This document shows positions 5,828-46,640 of a stretch of DNA of 47,061 nucleotides, piece after piece. Origin of the DNA: an uncultured Clostridia bacterium. Lineage in GTDB: Bacteria; Bacillota; Clostridia; TANB77; CAG-508. Below the pieces are notes generated by a model. That model ran no database searches. It was given only the letters and a program-made list of their open reading frames with translations, and was not told where the DNA came from. Within the stretch, counting starts at the first letter, position 1. Every line of letters starts with the position of its first letter. The position numbers and the translations under genes are program-made. The stretch covers positions 1-47,061 of the forward strand of contig CALXJV010000002.1 of NCBI GenBank assembly GCA_944388715.1, in the 5' to 3' direction.

Positions 5828-6268
5828 GCAATTTTGAAATTGTGAATGTTAACATTATTATTTACATCCTCAAATTTATTTTATAGAATGTATATATATT
5901 AATATTGAATGAATTTCGAATGTGATTGGAGAATGATTAGAAAATCTTAAATAATTTTTAGAACAAAAGCGACATGATTTATTCACTTTATCATTTTAGC
6001 TAACTAATATGTCGCGTTTTTGTTCGTGTGCCAATTTTACGTAAGTAAAATTGTGTACAACTAATTTTAATATATTAGAAAGTTTTTGTAACTTTCTAAT
6101 ATATTGTAAATGTTCGCGCCGAGCATAGCGAGGGCTAAGTGAAAGGGTGCCATAAAATTATTTTAGATTTTCTTATCTTTCGTATTGAGCCGAGAAATTC
6201 ATGAAATATTAATATATATACATTGTTATAAAGCATTTAAATTATAAATTGCACATATTAACCCTTAT
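5828..6268. repeat. Long imperfect foldback element E1 (core arms 5881-5960 / 6153-6231)
   Basis: Arms of about 80 nt pair at roughly three quarters of positions when aligned by eye. They enclose three internal hairpins: 5961-6025; 6032-6053; and 6069-6105 with a perfect 16-bp stem. A GC-rich block lies at 6113-6151. The element fills the whole intergenic region. Confidence 0.7.
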
Positions 6269-7930: not shown

Positions 7931-8075
7931 ATTCATTGTATTTTCAAATTATTTTCTTCTAACGGCAAGATTTTTTCAAAATAGTAATATTTCCTTCTTT
8001 TTTCATTATATCTCTCCGTATATTTTGATATTTGAATTCATGGCTAAAAAGAATTTTGCAATTCTTAAGGCGTTA

Positions 8076-8134
8076 CAAGGTCCGTCCCCTGTTCCCTGAT
8101 TTTAGGGATTTTTAGGACCGTCCCTAAATCCCTA
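8076..8134. repeat. Family B intergenic repeat, copy B1
   Basis: CAAGGTCCGTCCCCTGTTCCCTGATTTTAGGGATTTTTAGGACCGTCCCTAAATCCCTA. Its last three bases are the complement of the ftsK TAG stop codon. Confidence 0.8.
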
Positions 8135-10570
8135 TTCTGTTGTAGTACTACTTCCCATTTTAAGTTCATTTAATTTGTCTAAAGTCATTAGTACTTCTCT
8201 AGGTTTACTTCCTTGATATCCTGATATTACTCCTCTTTCTTCCATTTGGTCTATAATTCTACCAGCTCTTGCATATCCAACTTTAAATCTTCTTTGTATA
8301 AATGATGTTGATGCTTGTCCAGTTTCTACTACTGTTTGAATTGCGTCCATTAAAAATGGATCTGTTTCATCATCTTCTGATTGTTCTTGTGCTAATTCTT
8401 TATCTGTTTTATTACTATTTTCTATACTTTCCAATATGTCTTCACTATATGTAGCTGTTCCATTAGATTTTACAAAGTCTACTATTTTTTCTACTTCTTC
8501 ATCAGATACAAATGCTCCTTGTACTCTTGAAGGTTTTGGTGCTCCAGAAGGGAAAAATAACATATCTCCTTTTCCTAAAAGTTTTTCTGCTCCTACTGTA
8601 TCTAATATTGTTCTTGAGTCTACTTGTGATGATACTGCAAAAGCAATTCTAGATGGAATATTTGCTTTTATTAATCCTGTGATTACATCAACAGATGGTC
8701 TTTGTGTTGCAATTACTAGATGCATTCCTGCTGCTCTTGCTTTTTGTGCTAATCTACATATTGCTTCTTCAACATCTTTTGCTGCTACCATCATTAAGTC
8801 TGCTAACTCATCAACTATGATTACTATTTGAGGAAGTTTTCCTACTCCTTCTTCTTTTTCTATTAATTTATTATATCCTTTTAAGTCTCTTACCCCTTTT
8901 GTTGCAAATTTATTATATCTGTCATCCATTTCTTGAACAGCCCAAGCCAATGCTCCTGCTGCTTTTTTAGGGTCTGTTACAACTGGTATTAATAGATGTG
9001 GTATTCCATTATATACAGATAATTCAACTACTTTTGGATCTACCATTACCAATTTTACTTCACTTGGTTTGGCATTATATATTATACTTGTTATTATTGT
9101 ATTTATACATACACTTTTTCCAGATCCTGTGCTACCTGCTATTAATACATGTGGCATTTTTGCAATATCTGCAAGTTGTGGGTTACCTGCTACATCTTTT
9201 CCTAATGCTATTGTTAGTTTTGATTTATTGTTTTGGAATTCTTCACTTTCTAGTACTTCTCTTAAGTGTACTGTTTCTTTTTCTTTATTAGGAACTTCAA
9301 TTCCAACTGCTTGTTTTCCTGGTATTGGTGCTTCTATTCTTATTGTTTCTGCTGCTAGATTTAGAGCTATATCATCTGCTAAATTAGCAATTTTACTAAC
9401 TCTTACACCTTCTGCTGGTTTTAATTCATATCTTGTAATTGCTGGTCCCACTGAAACATTTTCTACTTTTGCTGATACTCCAAAACTGTATAGGGTTTTT
9501 TGTAATTTAGTAGCTGTGTCTGTTAATGCTTTTGCCCCTCCTTTTAGTGGTTTTGCTTTAGCTTTACTTAATAATTCTACTGGTGGGTATTCATAATGTT
9601 CATCTTCAACTACCATTGCATGTTCTAGTTGAAGAACTTCTCTTTTCTTTTCTTCTTTCTTTTCTTCTTCTTGTTTAAATAAATTGTTTTCTATAACATC
9701 TGGTTCCATTTGTTTTTTACTATCTCTTGTTAATGGTTCTAAATCATCTTTTGAATGATCATATTTCTTTAATTTTTTTGGATTTTCTTGTTCATCTAGT
9801 ATTCTTCCTCCAAAATTAATCTTTATTTGGTTTTCCATTTGTTCTTTTTCTTCTTTTGCTTTTGCTATCTTCTCTGCTTTTATTCTTGCTCTTTCTTCCA
9901 TTCTTTCTTCACGTTCTCTTTTTCTTCTCTCTTGAGCTGTTTCTTTTATATTTTCTTTTTTTCTTTCTTCTCTTTCTTCTAGTCTTTCCTCTTTTCTCTC
10001 TTCAAATCTTTCTACAAATCTATTTATTAAATCTGTCATACTTATTCCAAATGTGAAAACTAAAAATACAACCGCTATTCCTATACAAAGTATTACTGCT
10101 CCGACATCTCCTAATAATTTTGCTAATGGAACTGCTGCTACTGCACCTATTGCTCCTCCTCCTTTACTTTGTGAGCCTAAATAGTATGCATCTTTTACTA
10201 CTTCTGATAGTTCTTTTCCTGATTGTAATTCTCCACTAGAAATCTGGAATACACTAAACAAGACAGATAAACTGACAATAAATATTACATATTGTATAAG
10301 TTTAGATGTCAATGTGTCTCTTTCATCTGTTGCAAGTTTTATTCCTATTGCAAAACCTCCTATTGGAAGTATATATTGCATTATCCCAAACATTCCTCCT
10401 AATATCTCATTTAATTTTGCACCAATTACTCCAGATTTAGTATATATTAAAACACCTAATAATAAACTTAGCATAATTATAACTACAATAGCTAAATCTA
10501 ATTTACTTGCTGTTTTTTTGCTTTTTTTGTATCTTCTTTTTTTTGCCATTTCTATCATCCCTTCTGCCAC
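8132..10570 (-). CDS. ftsK: DNA translocase FtsK/SpoIIIE
   Basis: N-terminal transmembrane (TM) segments, a K/E-rich linker, Walker A GSTGSGKS, and a C-terminal winged-helix gamma domain ([22 protein letters not shown]). The true start may be the ATG at 10549 (MAKKRRY). Confidence 0.9.
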
Positions 10571-15090: not shown

Positions 15091-15134
15091 TGTGTCCCTT
15101 TTGGACATTTTTTGTCCATTTTAACACGTCCCCA
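15091..15134. repeat. Solo arm of the GGGGACGTG palindromic repeat
   Basis: TGTGTCCCTTTTGGACATTTTTTGTCCATTTTAACACGTCCCC matches the right arm of the 31704-31820 palindrome at about 40 of 43 positions. It overlaps the last codons and stop codon of miaA. Confidence 0.75.
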
Positions 15135-16047
15135 ATGACCTAATGATAATTTCAATGTTTCTTTGTATACCATCTTCTGCATTTAGCCATATTGTTTGTT
15201 TATTTTTCCTAAACCACGTCAATTGTCTTTTTGCATATCTTCTAGTTTCCATTTTTATTTTTTCTATCATTTCTTCTTTTGTATATATTCCATTAAGATA
15301 ATCTACAACTTCTTTATACCCTAATCCTTGCATTGCTGTTGGGAATTTACTGTATTTATTTAAAATTTTTTTTACTTCTTGTATTAATCCTTGTTCAAAC
15401 ATAATATCTACTCTTTTATTTATTCTTTCATATAGCTTTTCTCTATCCCAGTTTAATGCAAATACTTTATAGTCATATTCTACTTCTTTTTTTCTAGATT
15501 CAATTTCTTGTTCTGTTTTTGTTTTTCCTGTTGCATGATAAATTTCTAACACGCGTAATATTCTTTTTTTATCAGTGGGACTTATTTTTTCTATTGCTTT
15601 TGCATCTATTTGTTTTGCTTTTTCATATAATGTTTCTAGTCCTTTTTCTTGAACTTCCTCTTCTAATTTTTTTCTATATTCTTCATCTAATTTTATATCT
15701 TGATATTCAATTTCATAAATCAAACTATCTATATATAGTCCTGTACCGCCTACAACAATTGGATTTTTTCCTTTTTCTATAATTTCTTTTATTGCTTTTT
15801 TGGCATCTTTTTTATAATCTGCCACACTGTATCTTTTTTCTGGTGATACATATCCTATCAAATAATGCTTTATTCCTTGCATTTCCTCTAGTGTAGGCTT
15901 TGCTGCCCCTATATTCATGTCTTCATATATTTGCATTGAATCACATGATACTATTTCTCCATTTATTTTTTTTGCTAGTTCTATTGATAAAGCTGTTTTT
16001 CCTGATGCTGTTGGTCCACATATTACTATTACTTTATTTTTCTGCAT
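15121..16047 (-). CDS. miaA: tRNA dimethylallyltransferase MiaA
   Basis: VIVICGPTASGKTALSIELAK P-loop and full-length MiaA-like sequence. The start was moved to the ATG at 16047, which follows GAGGTG. Confidence 0.9.
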   Translation of the reverse strand: MQKNKVIVICGPTASGKTALSIELAKKINGEIVSCDSMQIYEDMNIGAAKPTLEEMQGIKHYLIGYVSPEKRYSVADYKKDAKKAIKEIIEKGKNPIVVGGTGLYIDSLIYEIEYQDIKLDEEYRKKLEEEVQEKGLETLYEKAKQIDAKAIEKISPTDKKRILRVLEIYHATGKTKTEQEIESRKKEVEYDYKVFALNWDREKLYERINKRVDIMFEQGLIQEVKKILNKYSKFPTAMQGLGYKEVVDYLNGIYTKEEMIEKIKMETRRYAKRQLTWFRKNKQTIWLNAEDGIQRNIEIIIRSLGTC

Positions 16048-19584: not shown

Positions 19585-22500
19585 TTATTCTACACTTTTC
19601 AAACTTCCTATCATATCAATTTTCTTTAGTGCAAAATATGTAACAATATTAACAATAATTGAAAATACTAATGTAATTGCCACAGCATATACATAACTTA
19701 ATGGATAAATAACTTTTTCGAATCTCAATATATTAATTTCACAAGTACCTAATATATAGAAATTTAAGAAATATCCTGCTATTAATCCCAACACTATACC
19801 TATTATTGTTAAAAGAATTGTTTCTCTAGTTATATAATCATATACTTCTCTATCATAAAATCCTAATACTTTTATTGTTGCCAATTCTCTTATTCTTTCA
19901 CTAATATTAACATTAGACAAATTGTACAACACTACAAATGCCAATAGACCTGCTGATATAATCAAAATTACAACTACATAATTTAAAGAATTCATTGTAT
20001 CATCTAGTGTTTTCATTGTAGTTTTTGTTAAAGTTACTGTTGATACTTCATTTTTAGCTACCATTTCTTGCATTACTGTTTCTTCTTGTTCTTCTGTTAA
20101 ATCATTATCTTGAATTAATAATACATTTGTACTATATTCTTCTCCATAAATTTGCTGGTATAATTCTTTTGACATATATACATAATGGCTAATATAGTTC
20201 TCTGTAATTCCTACAATTTTTATTTCTTTTTCTATATCATCATTTGTAGTTACTTTTATTGTATCACCTACTTTTGCTCCTATTAATTCAGCCAATTTAT
20301 CTGTTATAATAATTCCTTCCTCTGACAATTCAAATTTTTCTTTTGTCTTTACATCTCTTAGTTTTATCATTTTGTCGATTTCATTTTTATCATTTGGTAC
20401 AACAATTTGAACTGTTTCACTTTTATCATCTTTTCCTGCTGTTCCTGATTCCATATATGTCTCTAATATATCTTTGATTTCTTCTTTCTGTCGTAGTTCT
20501 TCTGTATAACTATTTTTTTGTTCGGCAGATAATGATGTTTTTAAACTTACCATAATATCATAGTCAAATATATCTTCATATTGATTTGGTAATATTGAAG
20601 ATATAGAATCCTTTAAACCAAATCCTGCAAGTATTAATGAAGTACATCCCATAATACCTATAATTGTCATTAGAAATCTTTTTTTGTATCTAAATATATT
20701 TCTTACTGTAACTTTATGAGAAAATTTTAATCTTTTCCATATAAAGTTGATTCTTTCTAATAAAACTCTTTTTCCATATTTAGGTGCTTTTGGTCTTAAT
20801 AAGTTTGCTGGTGTCTCTTTTACTTCTCTTAATATTGTATATAAAGTTGCTCCTACAATGCAAATATATATTAATCCTAATCCTAATGAAGAATACTGAT
20901 GGTTGAATGATACAATAAATTCTGGTAATGTATACATCATTTCATACATATCCCATATAATTCTAGGTAATAGTTGAAATCCTATATTCATTCCTATTAC
21001 GCCACCAACTATACATGCAAGACTTGAATAAATTAGGTATTTTAACATGATGTGAAATTTATTATATCCTAATGCTTTTAAAGTTCCTATCTCTTGCCTT
21101 TGCTCTTCTACCATTCTGGTCATTGATGTTAACGATACTAATGTAGCAATTGCAAAAAATACGATTGGAAATACAACACTAAGACTTTCTATGCTTTCCG
21201 TATCTTGTATATAACTGCTATATCCTGCATTTTGTTCTCTGTCTAATATGTACCACTTAGCCTTTTCAATTTCCGATACTTTTTCTTTTGCATCTATTAA
21301 TTTGCCTTCTGCTTCTTCTATTTTGCTATTAAATTCTGCTCTTGACTTTTCTAATTCTGCCTCCGCATTTGCTATCTCTTGTTTTGAAGATTCCAATTCT
21401 TTTTTTGCATTTGCAATTTGTGTATTTGTTTTACTTTTGGTTTGCTTTAATGTAGCTTCTTTTTTGGCTAATTCACTTTTTGCATTATTAATCTGTGCTT
21501 CTGCATTTTTCAATTCCGCTCTTCCACTTGTTATTTGATTATCTATCTCTGTTATTCCTGCTTGTACTGATTGCCTATTATTTTCATATACTTGCTTATT
21601 TGCTTGTAACTGTGCAATTTCTTGATTTATTGCCTGAATTTCTTCATCTGTCTCAGCTGTTTCTAATTCGGCTTGCTTTTCAGCTATAGAATTTTCTGTT
21701 ATTTTAATTGCATTATTTATATTATCTAATGTGCTTTGCAAACCTGCTTTTTGCTCTTCTGCTTGTGCAAAGCCTTTTTCTGCTTCTATTTTTTGATTAT
21801 TTAATTTAAGTGCATTTTTAGCAATCTCTGTTTTACCATTTTCTATTTGTGTTTCTGCATTTGCAAATTCTCTTTTAGCTTTAGTTTCATTACTACTAAT
21901 TTCAGATTCAGCACTTGCTATTTGTGCTTTTCCTTCATTAATTTTATTTTCTGCATCCTGAATTTGTGTCTCTCCATTTTGCTTTTCTGTATTGAATTCT
22001 TCTTCTGCCTTAGCAATTTCTTCATTAGCTTCATTTATTAGCTCTTGATATCTTGCATTTTCCCTTTCTTCTTTTATCTCTTCTATCTTATTTTTAGTTT
22101 CTTCCACATAATCTTCATACTTATTACTAGCTGTTTGGTATTTTTTTGCATTTTCCAATGTTATATATATTTCTGTATATACTTCTGAATTTACATTTTC
22201 TTTATTTATATATATAGTAATCAATTACACCTGTTCCTAATTTTGTACTTCCTCTTTCTCTTGATATATATAAAGGACTTTGTACAACACCTACAATTTT
22301 TAAACTTTTATTCTTTAGATATTCTTCCTCTTCCCCTTCTGTCTTTTCTGGCTCAATCTCAATAGTGTCTCCTATTTTTTTATCAGTTTCTTTTAGAAAA
22401 CCTTCTTCTACAACACATTCATCTACATTTTCTGGCATACTTCCTTCTACTAATACAGGTTTGTTAACATCATCTACACATAAAATTTTAGAAACAATTT

Positions 22501-22807
22501 CTTTATCAGTTGTTTTTATTATTCCATCTTTACTGTATGTTCCATAAACATTCTCTACATTTTCTATATTTGATAATGTATTAATATCATCATTTGTTAA
22601 ACCTAATGTAGACATTATTTCTATGTCATATACATTCTGGTTTTTGTAATATGTATCAATAGAATCAACCATATCTGGTGAAGAAGCTCTCAATCCTGCA
22701 AAAAAACCAACACCTAATAAAGCCATAAGTAATATGGATATAAATCTTTTATATGATTTTACGATTTCTTTGAATGTATCTTTTAACAAAGCCCTTTTAA
22801 CCTTCAT
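19585..22807 (-). pseudogene. MacB/FtsX-type ABC transporter permease split by a frameshift
   Basis: ORFs 22202-22807 (N-terminal TM segment plus extracellular domain) and 19585-22224 (coiled-coil insert plus two FtsX TM bundles) overlap in different frames at a TA-repeat tract (22208-22216). Adding one TA unit gives the continuous reading ...VIDYYIYINKENV... Confidence 0.7.
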
Positions 22808-22833
22808 TTGTATCACCTCCAAGATTTTGGATG

Positions 22834-22895
22834 AAACGTTAGGGACGTGCTAAATCGTACCAAAATGGAACGATTTAGCACGTCCCTAACGTTCC
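22834..22895. repeat. 63-nt palindromic repeat, family A1, copy 1
   Basis: AAACGTTAGGGACGTGCTAAATCGT-ACCAAAATGGA-ACGATTTAGCACGTCCCTAACGTTCC, sited between the ABC ATPase stop codon and the permease RBS. Confidence 0.9.
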
Positions 22896-22897
22896 AT

Positions 22898-23599
22898 TTA
22901 CCATTCTATGTTTTCTACTGGAATTGGATTTTGATTTATCTCAATACTTTCTGCAGTTCCATTTTTAAATCTAATAATTTTATCAGCCATAGGTGCAATT
23001 GCTCCATTATGAGTAATTATAATAACTGTCATTTTTTCCTTTCTAGCAGTATCTTGCAATAATTTTAGTATTTGCTTACCTGTTTTATAATCTAACGCAC
23101 CTGTTGGTTCATCACATAATAATAGTTTTGGATTTTTAGCAATAGCTCTTGCAATTGCAACTCTTTGTTGCTCTCCTCCTGATAATTGTGATGGGAAATT
23201 CTTTTTTCTATCAGCTAACCCTACTTTTTCCATAACATCATCTGGACTTAATGAATCTTTACAAATTTGTGTAGCAAGTTCAACATTTTCAATTGCTGTT
23301 AAGTTTTGTACTAAATTATAAAATTGAAATACAAAACCAATATCTTCTCTTCTATATTTGATTAACTCTTTATTTTTTAATTTTGCTACATTTTTTCCAT
23401 CAACTATTACATCTCCTGAAGTCACACTATCCATCCCCCCTAATATATTTAGTGCTGTTGTTTTTCCAGCTCCAGAAGGACCTACAATAACTACTAATTC
23501 TCCTTTTTCTATTGAAAAGTTTGTGTTATCTAATGCTTTTATTGTAATTTCTCCCATTTTATATTCTTTACATACATTTTTAAATTCTATATATGACAT
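22898..23599 (-). CDS. ABC transporter ATP-binding protein (MacB/LolD-like)
   Basis: Walker A GPSGAGKT, signature LSGGEQQR and Walker B LLLCDEP. The start was moved to the ATG at 23599 (MSYIEFKNV), which follows GGGAGGAG. Confidence 0.9.
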
Positions 23600-23615: not shown

Positions 23616-23671
23616 GGGATTAGGGGACGTTCCTTCAATCCCTGTTTTTAGGGATTAGGGGACGGACCTTC
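23616..23671. repeat. Family B intergenic repeat, copy B2 (inverted relative to B1/B3)
   Basis: GGGATTAGGGGACGTTCCTTCAATCCCTGTTTTTAGGGATTAGGGGACGGACCTTC. Its reverse complement aligns with B1 and B3. Confidence 0.8.
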
Positions 23672-23863
23672 TATTATTATATTTATTTTTTCGTTATTCT
23701 TTCCTTTTTTGGATATTATATCACATCAATTTTAAAAGTTGAAGGAAAATTTTATTATTAATAATAAAAATTAAATAGAATTATATAAATTCATAAAATC
23801 TTAACTTTTTTATTATTGTAAAAACATATTTATTGATATATAATTGAAAAAAAGAATATAGAG

Positions 23864-25636: not shown

Positions 25637-25769
25637 AAAATTTATATCCTCTCTTATTTTATAGTAAGTTCTTTAACTAACTTATACTAAAAATTCAAAT
25701 TTCATGTAAATAAAATTTGTGTACAACCATTTTAATTATATGAAATAGTTTATATTTTTTGTTACCAAT

Positions 25770-26030
25770 TTAATCTATCTTATATTTTTCTTTAATTTCT
25801 TCTAAAGCTTTTGATAATTGATCTGGGCATGATGTTCCTTTTGTACCACATGGAATTCCTTTTAATCTTCTTATTGCTTCATTTATATTCATACCTTCTA
25901 TCAATCTTGAAACTCCTACAGTATTTCCTGCACATCCTCCAATAATTGTTAATTTTTTTATAATATTTCCATCTAATTCAATTATCATCTCTCTTGAACA
26001 AACTCCACTTGGTTTATATCTATACTCCAT
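25770..26030 (-). CDS. TSCPD-domain small protein (TIGR03905-like)
   Basis: SGVCSREM...GGCAGN...GIPCGTKGTSCPDQL. The start was moved to the ATG at 26030, which follows GAAGGAGG. Confidence 0.75.
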   Translation of the reverse strand: MEYRYKPSGVCSREMIIELDGNIIKKLTIIGGCAGNTVGVSRLIEGMNINEAIRRLKGIPCGTKGTSCPDQLSKALEEIKEKYKID

Positions 26031-26053
26031 TTTTTCCTCCTTCAAAATTTTTC

Positions 26054-26096
26054 AAAAAGAAAATCCAGTTCACTGAACTGGATTTTCTTTTTTTAA
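26054..26096 (-). terminator. Rho-independent terminator after the PIN-domain gene
   Basis: Near-perfect 14-bp stem GAAAATCCAGTTCA/TGAACTGGATTTTC, flanked by A-run and T-run, so it could work in both directions. Confidence 0.7.
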
Positions 26097-26105
26097 AAAG
26101 TTAAT

Positions 26106-31693: not shown

Positions 31694-31703
31694 TAGGTTA
31701 ATA

Positions 31704-31820
31704 GGGACGTGTCAAAATGGACAAAAAATGGTCAAAAGGGACAGGTCAATAAGCTACTAATCTTTAACAACTATTGACCTGTCCCTTTTGACCATTTTTT
31801 GTCCATTTTGACACGTCCCC
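31704..31820. repeat. 117-nt palindrome with perfect 48-bp arms (family A2)
   Basis: 31704-31751 is the exact reverse complement of 31772-31819, with a 20-nt spacer. It lies between the convergent HD-GYP and mazF genes. Confidence 0.95.
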
Positions 31821-31830
31821 AACAACCCAA

Positions 31831-32181
31831 TTATTCTTCCAGCCCAAAGCTTACTCCCAAGGCATTGTTTACTTCATTAATTATTCTTTCGTCATCTATA
31901 TGACCTATTTTTTCTTTTAATCTACTTTTATCTATAGTTCTTATCTGTTCTGCTAAAACTACAGAATTGTTTTTTAATCCACAGCTTTCTGAATCAATCT
32001 CTATATGTGTTGGTAATTTATTTTTTCCTGTCTGTGAAGTTATTGCTGCTGCAATTACTGTTGGACTATATTTATTTCCTAAATCATTTTGTATAATTAG
32101 TACTGGTCTTACTCCTCCCTGTTCAGAACCTACTACTGGGCTTAAGTCTGCATAAAACATATCTCCTCTTTTTATTACCAT
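31831..32181 (-). CDS. mazF: MazF/PemK-family endoribonuclease toxin
   Basis: [32 protein letters not shown]...[10 protein letters not shown]...LPTHIEI...[16 protein letters not shown]. The start was moved to the ATG at 32181, 8 nt after AGGAG. Confidence 0.85.
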
Positions 32182-32255
32182 TTTTTTCACTCCTAATACT
32201 GTTATATTATCAAGTATGTGTTTTATTTTAAATATTAGTCATAGTAAAGTTATAA

Positions 32256-32861
32256 TTATTTTAACTTCACTTCTCTATATAATATGTAAACTGATGTGTT
32301 TTTGCTATTATCTTTTATTTCCATTTTAGTAGGTTTACCTGTTTTTTTATCTATATATAATGTTTGATATCTAGTATATTTATTATTTTCATTTTCTGTA
32401 TTTAATATTATTTCATCATCATCTTCTTCATATATTTGTTTTTTATTTAATTTATAATTTTCTATAAATGTATTTAAATCTAGGCAATTGTCTGTCATAT
32501 ATTCATAATCATTATATATTTTTGACATATTTATTTTACTATTTTCAACTTTTAATTCATTATCTTTTTTAGTGATTTTTATTCCTTGTATATTTTCTGG
32601 TTCTATTATTTCTTGTTCTGATATATCTGGAAATATGTATTTTTGTTTAATCGTATATCTATTAGTATTTTTATTACTCTTAACTTCTACTTCTATTACT
32701 GTTTCATATGAACTAATATTTAAAATATTATCAATTATTTCTTGACTAGTACTATTATTTCCAATTTTAAGTTTTTTACTCTTATTTATATAAAAAAATA
32801 TGCAAATACAAATTATGATTATAATAATAACTATTATTATTTTTCTTAATAATTTACTCAA
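32256..32861 (-). CDS. Membrane-anchored LolA-fold-like protein (YdcC/GerS-like)
   Basis: 201-aa ORF with a TTG start after AGGAGG and an N-terminal TM segment. The beta-rich body carries the ...SYETVIEVEVKSNKNTNRYTIKQKY... pattern. The assignment rests on pattern and synteny memory only. Confidence 0.4.
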   Translation of the reverse strand: MSKLLRKIIIVIIIIIICICIFFYINKSKKLKIGNNSTSQEIIDNILNISSYETVIEVEVKSNKNTNRYTIKQKYIFPDISEQEIIEPENIQGIKITKKDNELKVENSKINMSKIYNDYEYMTDNCLDLNTFIENYKLNKKQIYEEDDDEIILNTENENNKYTRYQTLYIDKKTGKPTKMEIKDNSKNTSVYILYREVKLK

Positions 32862-33941: not shown

Positions 33942-33964
33942 TTTTTCTCCTTTAAAAGACAAAG

Positions 33965-34086
33965 TGGGACAGGTCATAAAATGTATTTTTATTTCGACAA
34001 AATGTGACAAATTTTATTATTAGAAATATAATAAAATCAATAATTTTGGATTTGACTAGTAAAAATACATTTTATGACCTGGTCCA
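33965..34086. repeat. Inverted-repeat element (family A3) with GGGACAGGTCAT termini
   Basis: TGGGACAGGTCATAAAATGTATTTTTA (33965-33991) pairs with TAAAAATACATTTTATGACCTGGTCCA (34060-34086) at 25 of 27 positions. The ~68-nt centre contains GACAAAATGTGACAAA. Confidence 0.7.
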
Positions 34087-34096
34087 TATTGTCTTT

Positions 34097-35203
34097 TTAT
34101 TGTACAAATATTGTTTTTTTTCTTTTTCCACTTATATTTAATAAAAGTCCTATACATATAAAGTTTGTAATTAGTGAACTTCCTCCATAACTTATAAATG
34201 GTAATGGTACACCTGTTATTGGTAATAGTCCCATAACCATACCAATATTTTCTAAGACATGGAATAGAAATATTCCTGTAATCCCAATAGCAATTAACGA
34301 ACCTGCTCTATCTTTAGCTGTTTTTGCAATATAGATACATTTAGTTATCAAATATACATATAGTAATATTATTCCTCCAGCTACTATAAATCCCATTTCT
34401 TCTCCAATAACAGAATATATAAAGTCTGTTGTTTTAGGATATAAGAATCCTAGCTGTGTTTGGTTTCCTTTTAATAATCCCATTCCTGTTAGTCCGCCTG
34501 AACCTATTGCTATTTTTGATTGGATTATATTATATCCTGATCCTCTAGGGTCTGATTCTGGGTTTAAAAATACGTCTATTCTTTCTTTAGCATGTTCTGG
34601 TAACACAAAGTTATATAATAGTGGTACTGCAATTACAATTAGTAAAATTGTTCCTATAATATATTTTTTATCTAGCCCTGCTGAAAATAGCATAAGTGCC
34701 ATCGCTACTATATATGCTAATGCTGTTCCATAGTCTGGTTGCATAACTATTAATAAAATTGGTACTCCCACTACTGCTAATGCTATTGGTAATCTACTTA
34801 TTCTATTTATTTCATCTTGCCCTTTATGTTGTATTTTTAAAATTGTATATGTTAAAAATAGAATTACAAATACTTTGGCAAATTCACCAGGTTGCAATGA
34901 AAACGCTCCTATATTAAACCAGCTTGTGGCTCCATTAATTGGAGATGTAAATAATACTCCTATTAATAATATTATAAATATGCCATATAATACTGGTGAT
35001 GCTTTTAATAATAAATTGTAGTCTATAAACATTACTATTACCATAGCTATTAAACTAACTACAAGCCATATTATTTGCTTTGTAAATTCATCATATTCAG
35101 TTTCTTGTGTGGCAGAAAATAATGCAACTATTCCTATTATACACAGAATAATTGCAGTAATTAAAATTCCCCACTCCATATTTTTTAATTCTCTTTTTCT
35201 CAT
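34097..35203 (-). CDS. rodA: SEDS-family peptidoglycan polymerase, RodA-like (FtsW/RodA/SpoVE)
   Basis: Polytopic protein with the GYNIIQSKIAIGSGGLTGMG and PKTTDFIYSVIGEEMGF blocks. It sits downstream of minDE. Confidence 0.8.
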   Translation of the reverse strand: MRKRELKNMEWGILITAIILCIIGIVALFSATQETEYDEFTKQIIWLVVSLIAMVIVMFIDYNLLLKASPVLYGIFIILLIGVLFTSPINGATSWFNIGAFSLQPGEFAKVFVILFLTYTILKIQHKGQDEINRISRLPIALAVVGVPILLIVMQPDYGTALAYIVAMALMLFSAGLDKKYIIGTILLIVIAVPLLYNFVLPEHAKERIDVFLNPESDPRGSGYNIIQSKIAIGSGGLTGMGLLKGNQTQLGFLYPKTTDFIYSVIGEEMGFIVAGGIILLYVYLITKCIYIAKTAKDRAGSLIAIGITGIFLFHVLENIGMVMGLLPITGVPLPFISYGGSSLITNFICIGLLLNISGKRKKTIFVQ

Positions 35204-39496: not shown

Positions 39497-39632
39497 ATTC
39501 TTTCTTCTACTGTCATTGCTCTTTCCAGAACAGTAGCGAGCTTTCTTAAACATTTTTCCTATTCAATAACAAAACACCTCTTCCTTAGTTTCTTGTTAAA
39601 CTATATGTTTGGAAAAGATGTTTTATTCATTT
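39497..39632. repeat. Duplicate of the M23-peptidase promoter/RBS/first codons, interrupted by a 43-nt insert
   Basis: 39497-39527 is identical to 41665-41695 (31 nt). 39571-39632 is identical to 41700-41761 (62 nt). The insert lies at 39528-39570. Confidence 0.9.
39600..39628 (-). promoter_or_regulatory. Possible sigma-E-type promoter (duplicated copy) upstream of the M50 protease gene
   Basis: The minus strand reads GAATAAA-14 nt-CATATAGT. I recall the sigma-E consensus as ZHATAXX-14-CATACAHT. Confidence 0.3.
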
Positions 39633-39760
39633 GAAATTAAAATATTTAATTTTTTCACTCTGAATTATATTACTAGAAAATTCATAATATTTCTTTCAAA
39701 TATTTGGTTTTTAATTTCACTTTAAGTTATATAGCTGGATAAATAATTTTACAATATTAG

Positions 39761-40805: not shown

Positions 40806-41696
40806 TTACAATTCTAGAATTTTTTGAGGATCTACCGTTCTTTCTGATATTCTAATTTCAAAATGCAAATGTGGTCCTGTTGAATTTCCTGTAGAGCCAA
40901 CTTCTGCTATCTCTTGGCCCTGTGTTATTTGATCTCCTTCTTTAACATATATGTTATTACAATGTGCATAAATTATGCTTACTTCACCTATTTGTATTTT
41001 TAAATGTTTTCCATAATCCCCCTCTTCCGAAACCAAAACCACTTGCCCATTTGTAGCTGATTTTATCTTAGTTCCAGTTGTTGACGCTATATCAGTCCCT
41101 GTATGATTTTTAGGTACACTCCCAGTTGCTGTATCTCTAAAACCATAAATTGAACTTATAGTCCCTTCTACCGGTTTTATAAAGCTTGTCGTATTTTTTA
41201 CATTTAAAATATCTTGTTCTTCTTGTGATAAATTTTGATTTTTCTGCGTTTCTTGATTTGTTTCTTCTGGTTGCTTAGTCTCTTCTACAGCTCCTCCAAT
41301 ACCATTATTGTTTAGATTTTCTTCCACAGCATTTGTATTTTGTCCTTGATTGTCCTCTTGACTTCCTTGTTTATTAAAAAGGCTCATAATATAATTTTTA
41401 GTATCTCTATACAATTTTGTAAAATCAATATCCTGAGATATAATTTCATTTACTTTATTTATAAAGTCTTCTGAAAATATATATTTATTATTTTGAATTG
41501 TATAAATTACTAAATATATACATGTGCAAATTATAAGTTGAATTACGATTTTTTTTAATAACTTTATATCCTTTTTTTCTTTTTTTTCGCTCTTTTTTTC
41601 TTCCGAAACTATGGTTAAACCTTCATTTCTTTTTCTTCGTTCATATATTTCTTCTGCTCGTCTAATTCTTTCTTCTACTGTCATTGCTCTTTCCAT
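40806..41696 (-). CDS. Membrane-anchored M23 (LytM) metallopeptidase, SpoIVFA/SpoIIQ-like
   Basis: One TM segment, a low-complexity linker, then an intact HTGTDIA ... GPHLHFEI zinc-ligand motif pair. Confidence 0.85.
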   Translation of the reverse strand: MERAMTVEERIRRAEEIYERRKRNEGLTIVSEEKKSEKKEKKDIKLLKKIVIQLIICTCIYLVIYTIQNNKYIFSEDFINKVNEIISQDIDFTKLYRDTKNYIMSLFNKQGSQEDNQGQNTNAVEENLNNNGIGGAVEETKQPEETNQETQKNQNLSQEEQDILNVKNTTSFIKPVEGTISSIYGFRDTATGSVPKNHTGTDIASTTGTKIKSATNGQVVLVSEEGDYGKHLKIQIGEVSIIYAHCNNIYVKEGDQITQGQEIAEVGSTGNSTGPHLHFEIRISERTVDPQKILEL

Positions 41697-41761
41697 AAAA
41701 AAACACCTCTTCCTTAGTTTCTTGTTAAACTATATGTTTGGAAAAGATGTTTTATTCATTT
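41665..41761. repeat. Parent copy of the duplicated promoter/5' segment
   Basis: Identical blocks shared with 39497-39632. It includes the RBS AAGGAAGAGGTG and codons 1-11 of the M23 gene. Confidence 0.9.
41729..41757 (-). promoter_or_regulatory. Possible sigma-E-type promoter of the M23 peptidase gene
   Basis: The minus strand reads GAATAAA-14 nt-CATATAGT, about 30 nt upstream of the RBS. Confidence 0.35.
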
Positions 41762-42259
41762 AAATTTAATATATTGTTTCTCTATTTATTCTAAAATATG
41801 GTAAGCTATTTCCGTCTGATGTTATAAATAATACGCCATTCCCCCCTATTCCTTCTGAATCATTTCCAAATATTTGTATAATATTAGTTACATCTTTAAC
41901 TTTATCTATAAAAAATACTAATTACTATTTTTAGTAATTAGCTTCTAATTCTCACGATTAATTCACCTTTTATTTTTTAATATCAATTTTTTTCATCCTC
42001 TCAATTATTAATTTTTATCCATCATATAATCCATGTTTATATATGATTTCTCTAAAAAGTCATCTATCTCATAGTCAATTTTCTCCGTATGAAAAAACCT
42101 CCAATTTTTTCTGATTAACATTTTAATACATTAACCAATAAATATTGGAAGTTTATTGTCTTATAATTTTTTCATTTATAGCTTTGGTTGCTGATTTTTC
42201 ACTTTTTCTATGCCTATTTTCATAGAGTTTATAGGATTGTAAATTCAAAAGTATTTTTT

Positions 42260-42318
42260 CAAAGTCCGTCCCCTAATCCCTGTTTTTAGGAATTTTTAGG
42301 ACCGTCCCTTAATCCCTA
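42260..42318. repeat. Family B intergenic repeat, copy B3
   Basis: CAAAGTCCGTCCCCTAATCCCTGTTTTTAGGAATTTTTAGGACCGTCCCTTAATCCCTA. Its last three bases are the complement of the spo0A TAG stop codon. Confidence 0.8.
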
Positions 42319-43140
42319 TGCTGATTTTAATTCTAGGCGTAACTTGTCAGCTATCATTGCTATAAATTCGCTATTAGTTGGCTTTCCTTTTACTGCTGAA
42401 ATTGTATATCCAAATATATTTTCTACTACTTCCTGTTGTCCTCTTCCCCATGCTACTTCTATAGCATGACGAATTGCTCTTTCTACACGACTAGGAGTTG
42501 TATTAAATTTGTGAGCTATTTGTGGATATAAACTTTTTGTTATTTGATTAATTACATCAATATCATTTACAACCATTATTATAGCCTCTCTTAAATACTG
42601 ATATCCTTTTATATGTGCTGGTACACCAACTTCATGAATTATATTTGTTACTAGTGCTTCTAAATTTTCTTCTGTTTTAGTACCATCTTGAGAAATTTCT
42701 ATATACTGAGGTTTTGATTCTCTTGATATAAAATTGTTATTAGTATTTTGCGTTGCTGGTTTATAAAATTTAAATTCCCTAATTCTTTGTATTAATACTT
42801 CAATGTCAAATGGTTTTACCACATAGTATTGTGCTCCTAATTCTATAGCTCTTTGAGTTATTTTATCTTGTCCAACCGCTGATAGCATTATGCAAATTGG
42901 ATTTTTACTTATTTTTATTTTATTAATATTTTCTAAAACACCTAATCCATCTAAATGTGGCATAATTACATCTAATAAAATTACATCTGGTACTGTATTT
43001 GCAATTATATCTATCACTTCTGTTCCATCTTTGGCTCTTGCTATAACCTCCATATCTTCTTGTGCATCAATATATGATGCTAATGTCTGACTGAATTCTT
43101 GATTATCATCTGCTATTAAAACTGTAATCTTTTCTTTCAT
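42316..43140 (-). CDS. spo0A: Sporulation master regulator Spo0A
   Basis: Receiver domain (LIADDN...[14 protein letters not shown]) plus the Spo0A-specific C-terminal DNA-binding domain ([28 protein letters not shown]). Confidence 0.93.
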
Positions 43141-45327: not shown

Positions 45328-45341
45328 GAAAATTCCTTTCT

Positions 45342-45404
45342 GGAACGTTGGGGACGTGCTAAATCGTACCAAAATGGAACGATTTAGCACGTCCCCAACG
45401 TTCC
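45342..45404. repeat. 63-nt palindromic repeat, family A1, copy 2
   Basis: GGAACGTTGGGGACGTGCTAAATCGT-ACCAAAATGGA-ACGATTTAGCACGTCCCCAACGTTCC with perfect 26-bp arms. Confidence 0.9.
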
Positions 45405-46640
45405 ACTATTTTTCATTTCTTCTATTGCTTTTAATACGCCATATTTCCCATATTCATATGTTAATCCGCCTTGCATATATGCTATATATGGTTCTCTTAA
45501 TGGTCCATCACAACTAAGTTCTATTGTTGAACCTTCTGTAAATGTTCCCGCTGCCATTATTACTTCATCCTCATATCCTCCCATAGGACTTGGCTCTGGT
45601 ACAACATTTGAATCTATTGGTGATCCCTTTTGTATTCCTTGACAAAATTTAACTAATTTTTCTGCTGTTCCTAAATTTATTGTTTGTACTATATCTGCTC
45701 TTTCTTCATCATATTTAGGCTCTACATCATATCCTAACTCTTCTAAAATGCTACTAGCAAATATTGCCGTTTTTACACTACTTGCTACAACTTGTGGTGC
45801 AAAAAATAATCCCTTTAATAAATTTGTATTTTGGTTTAATGATGGACCTATTTCTTTTCCTATTCCTGGTGCTGTTAATCTTTCTGCACATAATTTAATT
45901 AGATGTTCTTTTCCCACTATATAGGCACCACTTGTTGCTATTCCTGCTCCTAAATTTTTCATTAAAGAGCCCACTGCTATATCAGCACCTACTTCTATTG
46001 GTTCTCTATCTTGAACAAATTCTCCATAACAATTGTCTACCATTATAATTACTTCTTTGTTTACTTCTCTTATTGCTTTTATTACTTTTTCTATTTTTTC
46101 TATTGTTAAACTTTTTCTTGTTGAATATCCTCTTGATCTTTGAATTTCAACTAATTTAACATCTTTTTTGGCTAATCTTACTTTTATTTTTTCTATGTCA
46201 AAGTCATTATTTACTAATTCTATTTGTTCATATTTTATACCATATGCTTTTAAAGAACTTTCACTTACTTCTTTTCCTATTCCTATTACTGTTTGTAATG
46301 TGTCATATGGTTCTCCTGTTATGCTTACCATCATATCATTTGGACGTAATAATGCAGATAGAGTTATCGCTAAAGCATGTGTTCCTGATATAAATTGTGC
46401 TCTAACTAGACTGTCTTCTGCTTTAAATATTTTTGAATATATTTCTTCTATTTTGTTTCTTCCTACTTCATCTATCCCATATCCAGTTGATGTTGCTAAA
46501 TGCATTTCTTGTAGATTACATTCTTGAAATGCTTTTATTACTTTTATACTATTTTTACTACATATTTCTTCGATTTTTTTGAATTGTGGTTCTATTTTTT
46601 TTTCTATATTTTTTGATAATTCCACTAAATCTTTATTCAT
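45384..46640 (-). CDS. PLP-dependent 'aluminium resistance'/YnbB-like (Met gamma-lyase family) protein
   Basis: STGYGIDEVGRNKIEEIYSKIFKAEDSLVRAQFISGTHAL is typical of the family. The last 6 codons and the stop codon lie inside the repeat. Confidence 0.75.
   Translation of the reverse strand: MNKDLVELSKNIEKKIEPQFKKIEEICSKNSIKVIKAFQECNLQEMHLATSTGYGIDEVGRNKIEEIYSKIFKAEDSLVRAQFISGTHALAITLSALLRPNDMMVSITGEPYDTLQTVIGIGKEVSESSLKAYGIKYEQIELVNNDFDIEKIKVRLAKKDVKLVEIQRSRGYSTRKSLTIEKIEKVIKAIREVNKEVIIMVDNCYGEFVQDREPIEVGADIAVGSLMKNLGAGIATSGAYIVGKEHLIKLCAERLTAPGIGKEIGPSLNQNTNLLKGLFFAPQVVASSVKTAIFASSILEELGYDVEPKYDEERADIVQTINLGTAEKLVKFCQGIQKGSPIDSNVVPEPSPMGGYEDEVIMAAGTFTEGSTIELSCDGPLREPYIAYMQGGLTYEYGKYGVLKAIEEMKNSGTLGTC

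Follow-up and report, generated by a model that had tools for sequence, protein, structure and literature searches.

Inverted doublets of short palindromic units, and compensated changes in the hairpins that they form, have been described for REPINs (PMC3116915). In REP/BIME elements, a conserved tetranucleotide, usually GTAG, lies immediately 5′ of the palindrome, and in both the IS200/IS605 and the REP systems the sites are defined by hairpins, stem mismatches and guide/target complementarity (PMC8266576). REPs of E. coli that lie no more than 15 nt from a stop codon stall ribosomes and down-regulate, according to work cited in PMC12306157. Shufflon sfx architecture has also been described (PMC11852207). 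Here, we studied a stretch of 47,061 nt from an uncultured Clostridia bacterium (the window) which contains two near-identical 63-nt palindromes. We propose, with a probability of about 0.7, that the 63-mers are two copies of a small non-autonomous mobile repeat with GGGGACG boxes which occupies short intergenic spacers, is REPIN-like, would spread via a single-stranded hairpin intermediate and would act as a hairpin on the transcript.

The window has a G+C content of 27%, and nearly all of its genes are on the minus strand. Housekeeping genes in it include ftsK, miaA, mutL, mnmA, aspS, minDE, ftsW/rodA, dus, spo0A, divIVA and sepF. The closest named relatives of its ynbB-like protein are those of 'Clostridium sp. 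CAG:575' and 'Clostridium sp. 27_14' (84% identity), and the host is an uncultured, Spo0A-positive gut Clostridia lineage which is kin of 'Clostridium sp. CAG:575'. Neither the window nor the flanks that were fetched encode a transposase or recombinase, and their Pfam matches include no Y1 transposase family. CAG:575-type relatives carry a Transposase_31 gene (YhgA/Rpn-like PD-(D/E)XK; L052:3697-4353 and L054:3700-4356); these relatives have no GGGACG elements in the 21 kb read, and there is no apparent link between the two. An 85-nt direct repeat (39562-39646 and 41691-41775, 94% identical) lies directly upstream of two minus-strand genes, one of them an M23 peptidase gene, and looks like a duplicated leader or promoter segment. 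The region of a small TSCPD-domain gene (25714-26097) is mostly absent in L066 and L067 through several adjacent deletions.

Copy A (45341-45405, no strand assigned) lies between the ynbB-like gene (45384-46640, minus strand), whose stop codon is inside copy A in the window strain, and the gene of an HI0933-like flavoprotein (minus strand, start at about 45327). Its part from 45342 to 45404 reads GGAACGTTGGGGACGTGCTAAATCGT / ACCAAAATGGA / ACGATTTAGCACGTCCCCAACGTTCC, with 26-bp arms and no mismatch. Pairing goes one position further outward (T/A at 45341/45405) and also inward, as CCA and TGG in the apparent loop pair across one A.A mismatch, which gives a stem of 31 positions with an AAA loop; a repeat finder returned 31-nt arms, 97% complementary, with 3 nt between them. 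Copy B (22832-22896) has the common centre and differs by one compensated G-C to A-T pair, and the arms of the two copies are 26-31 bp long. With a 4-nt insertion it extends over 22828-22896 (no strand assigned), between the stop codon of an ABC ATPase gene (22898-22900) and the start of an FtsX-type permease gene (about 22807). On the sense (minus) strand, the predicted RNA folds of copies A and B have energies of -54.2 and -49.3 kcal/mol, with z about -13 to -14. The permease, of FtsX/MacB type (19585-22822), is split into ORFs of 206 aa and 879 aa that overlap by 23 nt; it is a single ORF of 1074-1079 aa in L012, L061 and L063-L067 and is split also in L062. The split in the window strain is a frameshift or an assembly error.

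A first-pass annotation of this DNA had reported the near-identical palindromes with perfect 26-bp arms in copy A, and this was borne out: the 39-nt core has two exact matches in the window and none in 100 shuffles. The same centre in copy B, with G to A in the left arm, C to T in the right arm and pairing kept, was found as reported. The 63-nt copy B begins at 22833 instead of 22834, and the compensated pair, which is real, had been given as the arm difference while a third difference, GGAACG versus GAAACG close to the left end, was overlooked. Comparison with four other strains shows that the latter is best explained by a 4-nt insertion of ATGA in copy B at about 22831-22834 (TCAT on the sense strand), by which the terminal TGG/CCA pairs are displaced; the alternative of an uncompensated substitution, with G.U on the sense strand, was considered and rejected. 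Both copies had also been placed 15-30 nt upstream of the ribosome-binding site of the next gene. The distances measured are 2-3 nt for copy A, where AAGGAA is followed by the ATG at 14 nt from the palindrome, and about 14 nt for copy B, where GGAGGTG begins; the downstream cistrons begin 14-26 nt after the hairpins.

Each 31-nt unit forms a small hairpin of its own, in which a 7-bp stem, TGGAACG/CGTWCCA, closes a 17-nt loop, TTGGGGACGTGCTAAAT, that carries TTGGGGACGTG. The stem of the right unit is perfect, that of the left unit has one A.A mismatch, and AAA lies between the two. In the 63-mer, two such units make up an inverted doublet, which folds into one hairpin of roughly 30 bp, a REPIN-like architecture, and all six boxes of each doublet are GGNACG hexamers. 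Other subfamilies carry GGGGACG in the loop of stems of their own (TGTCCA/TGGACA, GATGATTT/AAATCATC, AAAGGGAAA/TTTCCCTTT and TAGGGATTT/AAATCCCTA). At the Clostridial loci, 15 of 35 GGGACG sites are in a loop that is closed by a perfect local stem of 6 bp or more, compared to 5.8% of 3000 random positions; when arms are folded alone, most subfamilies give z of -2 to -4.5.

The window contains 13 GGGACG sites where 0.72 are expected, and 11 of these lie either within the arms of copies A and B or in other intergenic elements that are palindromic or repeated. The 63-nt subfamily is low-copy, with two members here, and at least eight palindromic elements of the window have the GGGGACG box, which several palindrome families have in common. 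A sister element of the GGGACGG type has inserted 2 nt downstream of the stop codons of spo0A (80 nt; 42234-42313, minus strand) and ftsK (a second copy; 8073-8131, minus strand); 8073-8139 and 42257-42323 form a 67-nt repeat pair with 88% identity. A related GGGGACG element (23620-23673, plus strand) is in the 5′ leader of the ABC ATPase gene and is kept in all strains. The spacer of the convergent HD-domain and mazF-like genes is filled by a 132-nt palindrome with arms of 50-56 nt (TAGGGACGTGTCAAAATGGACA...; 31696-31827, no strand assigned), and a solo half of its family (15093-15160, minus strand) overlaps the 3′ end of miaA. Another palindrome, with 38-nt arms and the GGGACAGGTC motif (33954-34097, no strand assigned), follows directly after the stop codon of the ftsW/rodA-type gene; it is possibly a distant relative, and its membership in the GGGGACG family is uncertain. 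Doublets and solo halves both occur in the window, and the superfamily, with at least eight elements in 47 kb, is palindromic, repeated and extragenic in the sense used for REP/BIME. Rfam gave no match in the window; at the E-value threshold there were just generic miRNA-precursor hairpins, far below the gathering threshold. A covariance model built from the 63-mer variants found no further copies in the window.

Two observations concern the surroundings of these elements. The MazF/PemK-like toxin gene (119 aa), whose stop codon adjoins the 132-nt palindrome, lies downstream of a 201-aa ORF (31831-32861 for the region) that is without a Pfam match and is assigned to the YdcC family in the contig table. 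In the transglycosylase/ABC spacer, at about 23784, strains differ by an 86-nt AT-rich indel (L063:3574-3659; L064:3552-3637), the start of which (GAAATATTAATATATATACATT) matches one arm of a 31-nt inverted repeat pair (5887-5917 / 6194-6224); this indel may be a second, unrelated small mobile element.

Eight of nine elements overlap a stop codon or begin 0-4 nt after one, the exception being the element at 23620-23673. The offset is 2 nt from the TAG of ftsK and of spo0A, 1 nt from the TAA of the ABC ATPase gene, and 0 nt from the TAG of ynbB and the TAA of ftsW; the 132-nt palindrome is 2 nt from the TAA of the HD gene and 3-4 nt from the TAA of the mazF-like gene. In miaA, the stop codon is within the element and the last residues are element-encoded (…SLGTC*). 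This adjacency persists in spacers of 207-619 nt; for those three long spacers, we estimate by hand a chance of roughly 5/L each and a joint chance of about 1e-5. In the window strain, ynbB reads into the palindrome and its product ends in ...GTLGTC*, because its A-run lacks one base relative to L042, in which the TAG comes before the element (418 aa in the window strain and 411 aa in L042). Thus the unrelated genes miaA and ynbB (15121-15140 and 45384-45410) end in the same element-encoded LGTC, followed by the TAA of the element. The solo GGGACG boxes that adjoin stop codons are on the sense strand.

We compared both junctions and the sister-element sites among strains and relatives. At junction A (ynbB/flavoprotein), all same-species assemblies carry the palindrome (L030, L031, L041, L042, L045 and L046), and the contigs L045 and L046 begin inside it, since assemblers break at repeats. 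In L059, whose YnbB is 91% identical, the junction is empty (...GAAATGAGAAAATAA|AAGGAAGGAAATTTTTGTG). In L058 (89% identical), another GGGGACG palindrome of 115 nt lies between the stop codon and the same AGAAAGGAATTT, and the more distant relatives L050 and L052-L057 have no palindrome at this junction. At junction B (ABC ATPase/permease), strains with identical MnmA carry the 63-mer with or without the 4-nt insertion, and the CGTCCC box of one strain has a C to T change. A different GGGGACG palindrome of roughly 100 nt (TGTCCATTGGGGACGTTTCC...) is found in L066 and in the MAG locus L012 (94% identical). A third insertion site of the 63-mer, copy C, was found after a 241-aa gene in L046 and L012; copy C as a clean empty/occupied pair was rejected, as the downstream flank differs too. 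The 241-aa gene lies between spo0A and the M23 peptidase gene in some strains (L042:6251-6976; L046:3369-4094), and the window retains just its last ~150 nt (41759-41909).

The sister element at spo0A is an 80-nt presence/absence polymorphism among contigs with an identical Spo0A protein. The site is occupied in the window, L041, L043 and L044 (...CAGCATAGGG|ATTAAGGGACGG...ACAATCC|TATAAAC) and empty in L042 and L045-L047 (...CAGCATAGGG|TATAAAT), with unambiguous boundaries, and comparison of the occupied and empty alleles shows no target duplication. Likewise, there are no direct repeats flanking the four 63-nt insertion sites. The 5′ flank of the ftsK copy, CAGAATAGGG, is near-identical to the 10-nt sequence at spo0A, and the only two exact occurrences of CAGNATAGGG in the window are the two sister-element junctions (spo0A and ftsK). 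The sister element thus lands directly 3′ of ...ATAGGG, which contains the stop codon. The motif at spo0A is part of the native coding region (...S A stop), so the element inserted at a site that already existed. This target rule derives from the two sites of the sister element, one of which pre-exists in the empty alleles, and the empty site known for the 63-mer is that of a diverged lineage (L059). Taken together, these results show that the GGGGACG-box elements are insertions and that they are polymorphic between strains and lineages. Both palindromes are inside co-directional gene pairs, and the first-pass annotation treated them as a feature of operon-like junctions; they are not locus-specific, because the empty sites, the replacement by sister elements and the strain polymorphism point to interspersed insertions.

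The compensated change between copies A and B was then set in a larger sample of seven distinct variants from four insertion sites (A, B, C after the 241-aa gene, and D in L027) and their strain alleles. Three pairs are changed on both sides, namely T-A to C-G at 1/65, T-A to A-T at 8/58 and G-C to A-T at 10/56, and 95.9% of cells are paired, with four to five one-sided changes in the same variants. The covariation score was reached by 1 of 500 shuffles and the pair count by 13 of 500, and slid controls gave 0. When the doublet of a Micropruina MAG (see below) was added, there were 11 two-sided pair changes, a number reached by none of 500 shuffles. The unit stems are invariant within the 63-nt subfamily and so are uninformative there; support for them comes from the comparison between subfamilies. 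These results show that palindromy has evidently been kept through compensated changes in this small sample. The view in the first-pass annotation that the paired change reflects selection or conversion at the level of the hairpin holds in part, in that pairing, and not the primary sequence alone, is maintained; compensated arm changes have been described for mobile palindromes such as REPINs (PMC3116915). For a mobile, hairpin-forming repeat the paired arm change is expected and not surprising. The finding is real and its earlier interpretation was right in spirit; the object is an interspersed mobile palindrome.

Three of the four clear one-sided changes give a sense-strand G.U, which is not significant. 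The G.U cases are too few to separate selection at the RNA level from constraints of DNA-level repair or transposition, and the upkeep of pairing may act on RNA, on single-stranded DNA during transposition, or through repair within the palindrome.

Alternatively, the palindromes could be dedicated cis-acting RNA elements that stabilise the intercistronic region, serve as an RNase III site or modulate translation termination; they would then be kept by transcript-level selection for this function and not for mobility. The position of both copies, 0-1 nt after the stop codon of a co-directional gene pair and just upstream of the next ribosome-binding site, would suit such an element, as would the extreme stability of the predicted RNA hairpin, the G.U changes and the sense-strand orientation of the solo boxes at stop codons. 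We nevertheless consider this reading unlikely, because close relatives with the same genes have the junctions empty or otherwise occupied, strains of one species differ in whether they carry the sister element, and copy C (L012/L046) is in the opposite orientation relative to the upstream gene. In addition, members of the family are found between convergent genes and in a 5′ leader, and no Rfam family matches. Function and mobility are compatible, and this alternative largely overlaps the transcript half of the explanation by a mobile repeat.

To determine how far the mobile repeat extends beyond the window, we searched 185,579 species-representative genomes with the central 17-mer. This gave 29 matches, of which 26 are chance matches, two are in a related MAG, at two loci, and one is in a Micropruina MAG. 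Box patterns gave no match in three viral-contig scans, and six-frame translations of the palindrome gave nothing against 5.8 billion proteins, a search for copies inside called ORFs. When 72,556 plasmids were searched by BLAST with the 63-nt and 132-nt elements, nothing useful came up, and no parent IS was seen in the window or the loci either. The 63-nt subfamily is therefore young, low-copy and confined to this lineage, as the 17-mer is limited to the related MAG and the viral, plasmid and protein searches add nothing to it. The GGGGACG-box superfamily is older than the 63-nt subfamily; a GGGGACGGACC remnant follows spo0A in L055.

The Micropruina MAG is an Actinobacterium with 72% G+C, and its locus has the whole layout TGGAACG-ac-GGGGACG-gttctttt-CGTTCCA-AAA-TGGAACG-aaaagaac-CGTCCCC-g-CGTACC. 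Since the search imposed just the 17-mer and not the flanking boxes at the same spacing, we estimate a chance probability on the order of 1e-7 for these boxes. The 8-nt spacers differ between the Clostridia and Micropruina, yet they stay complementary. The array (L024:100-264, minus strand of the locus) consists of the doublet and then three tandem 34-nt solo units with the A.A-type mismatch, and it is at the contig end, with about 25 nt between it and the stop codon of the ABC-transporter-like gene that precedes it. A two-arm pattern scan of metagenomes found just a high-GC family (TAAAGGGGACGTGGCAAATTAAG...CTTAATTTGCCACGTCCCCTTTA), which is unrelated-looking and whose match may be forced, as GGGACGTG was imposed by the search pattern. 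The contigs of this family (L032-L040; JGI Ga0209916, Ga0209941 and Ga0164242) have 61-69% G+C and carry compensated variants. Its elements are at most 20 nt from the stops of long ORFs, often supply the TAA, and have a partial copy of the head (TAAAGG) 3-4 nt upstream.

A bolder idea, which we regard as speculative and rather unlikely, is that the 31-nt unit TGGAACG-N2-GGGGACG-N8-CGTWCCA, with six GGNACG boxes per doublet, a conserved A.A mismatch and a free complementary 8-nt spacer, would be the recognition module of an undescribed and horizontally spread hairpin- or site-specific DNA enzyme. This enzyme would be common to Firmicutes and Actinobacteria and would target stop-codon sequences with T(A/T)GGG-like heads. 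It would account for GGGGACG-headed palindromes on gene ends in at least two phyla and for their replacing one another at the same point.

The same layout can be read as sites of a tyrosine recombinase, with inverted 7-bp boxes (GGGGACG/CGTWCCA) around an 8-bp spacer in the form of a core site, that would spread or rearrange by site-specific recombination and not by transposition. A box-8 bp-box layout common to the Clostridia and Micropruina, in which the spacer differs, is consistent with this, as are the specific pre-existing target without duplication and the finding of different elements at exactly the same point. There is also a weak match between the Micropruina unit (L024:121-148) and NC_024975.1 (85615-85642; L060), with a 21-nt exact run, GTCCCCCACGTACCGGAGTGG; the site is apparently an sfx recombination site inside the IncI/K pilV shufflon, but the BLAST E-values of 0.01-0.1 are at chance level. 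The centre of the window copies agrees with what we take to be the sfx consensus (a 7-bp core and a 12-bp right arm) at only 12 of 19 positions in a manual alignment, which counts against this reading. Moreover, there is no recombinase gene near any element, the orientation of the centre is constant across all junction A and B assemblies with no sign of inversion, and the R/L box consensus of attC (GTTRRRY/RYYYAAC) is absent. We therefore hold recombinase sites to be improbable, more so than a dedicated RNA element. Resemblances to a Tn3-type inverted repeat, CIRCE, parS, a CtsR-box and an ECF promoter were dropped for wrong spacing or orientation and for want of any support.

An intrinsic terminator or attenuator would fit a strong hairpin in an intergenic spacer, and chance or an assembly artefact might also be invoked, but all of these are very improbable, since no sense-strand U-tract follows either hairpin (the next bases are GAAAGGAAUUUUCAUG and UCCAAAAUCUUGGAGG), there are just 14-26 nt between the hairpin and the downstream cistron, more than 10 independent assemblies contain the same sequence, and shuffles contain no match to the 39-nt core.

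With the mobile repeat as the preferred explanation, spread would proceed through a single-stranded hairpin intermediate, by analogy with described systems. The mobilising enzyme is presumably encoded elsewhere in the genome, with HUH/Y1 transposases (RAYT or IS200/IS605 type) and other recombinases as candidates; an enzyme that recognises the hairpin would select for complementarity of the arms. Copies inside operons would be co-transcribed and would form a hairpin with a predicted energy of about -50 kcal/mol, 0-1 nt after the stop codon. By analogy, a hairpin abutting the stop codon may impede the terminating ribosome, block exonucleases or be an RNase III site, and in this way it would uncouple the expression of the flanking cistrons.

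Work on REPIN-like hairpin repeats has been almost confined to Proteobacteria; these elements indicate that such repeats diversify and turn over in uncultured gut Clostridia with reduced genomes as well. Co-occurring strains with occupied and with empty alleles of the same gene junctions are a natural system for the effect that a 30-bp hairpin on a stop codon has on an operon. In addition, metagenome assemblies break at the elements and gene ends are altered by them (miaA and ynbB end in LGTC*), which is relevant to the annotation of such MAGs. If the conservation of the boxes across phyla is true, it would point to an unrecognised mobilising enzyme. The tight targeting of stop codons, the natural allele series and the Micropruina match add to the interest of the family.

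Among described systems, REPIN and REP/BIME elements (RAYT, TnpAREP; Pseudomonas and E. coli) are alike in being short extragenic palindromes with several related families per genome. As in REPINs, two inverted units a few bases apart form one long hairpin, and singlets and tandem clusters occur beside the doublets. Compensated changes, the lack of target duplication and the many copies near stop codons are also common to both (PMC3116915, PMC8266576, PMC12306157). In contrast to the unpaired 5′ GTAG of REPs, the Clostridial motif GGGGACG is inside the paired arm or the unit loop. A GTAG head is absent 5′ of the palindromes, where the flanks are TAG|T, TAAA|T, AAAC|G and GAG|T. Unlike RAYT/REP systems, which have been described mainly in Proteobacteria, the elements studied here are in a low-GC Firmicute, with a low-copy subfamily and no linked RAYT gene. 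Because GTAG is absent and the link to RAYT is by analogy, we call the elements REPIN-like and not REPINs.

Similar to IS200/IS605 elements and their miniature derivatives (PATEs), the sister element, at its two sites, has inserted directly 3′ of a specific short sequence without duplication; the Clostridial elements also resemble them in DNA hairpins with mismatches and in having no classical terminal inverted repeats with duplication. IS200/IS605 ends carry two different subterminal hairpins, whereas a single perfect palindrome is found here, and no tnpA/tnpB gene was seen. Neisseria Correia elements, pneumococcal BOX/RUP/SPRITE and enterobacterial ERIC carry terminal inverted repeats and duplicate their target (TA for Correia and RUP), and some of these co-transcribed MITEs have known parent IS elements. 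They form long transcript hairpins that can be cut by RNase III or alter mRNA stability, and they are present or absent between strains. The Clostridial elements resemble them as small palindromic insertions in operons with presence/absence between strains, and differ in having no detected duplication or parent IS. Lastly, like the E. coli REPs near stop codons, they place a stable hairpin by the stop codon of the upstream gene, here beginning 0-4 nt after it. This adjacency is far tighter and more general, with eight of nine elements compared to about 11% of E. coli REPs in PMC12306157.
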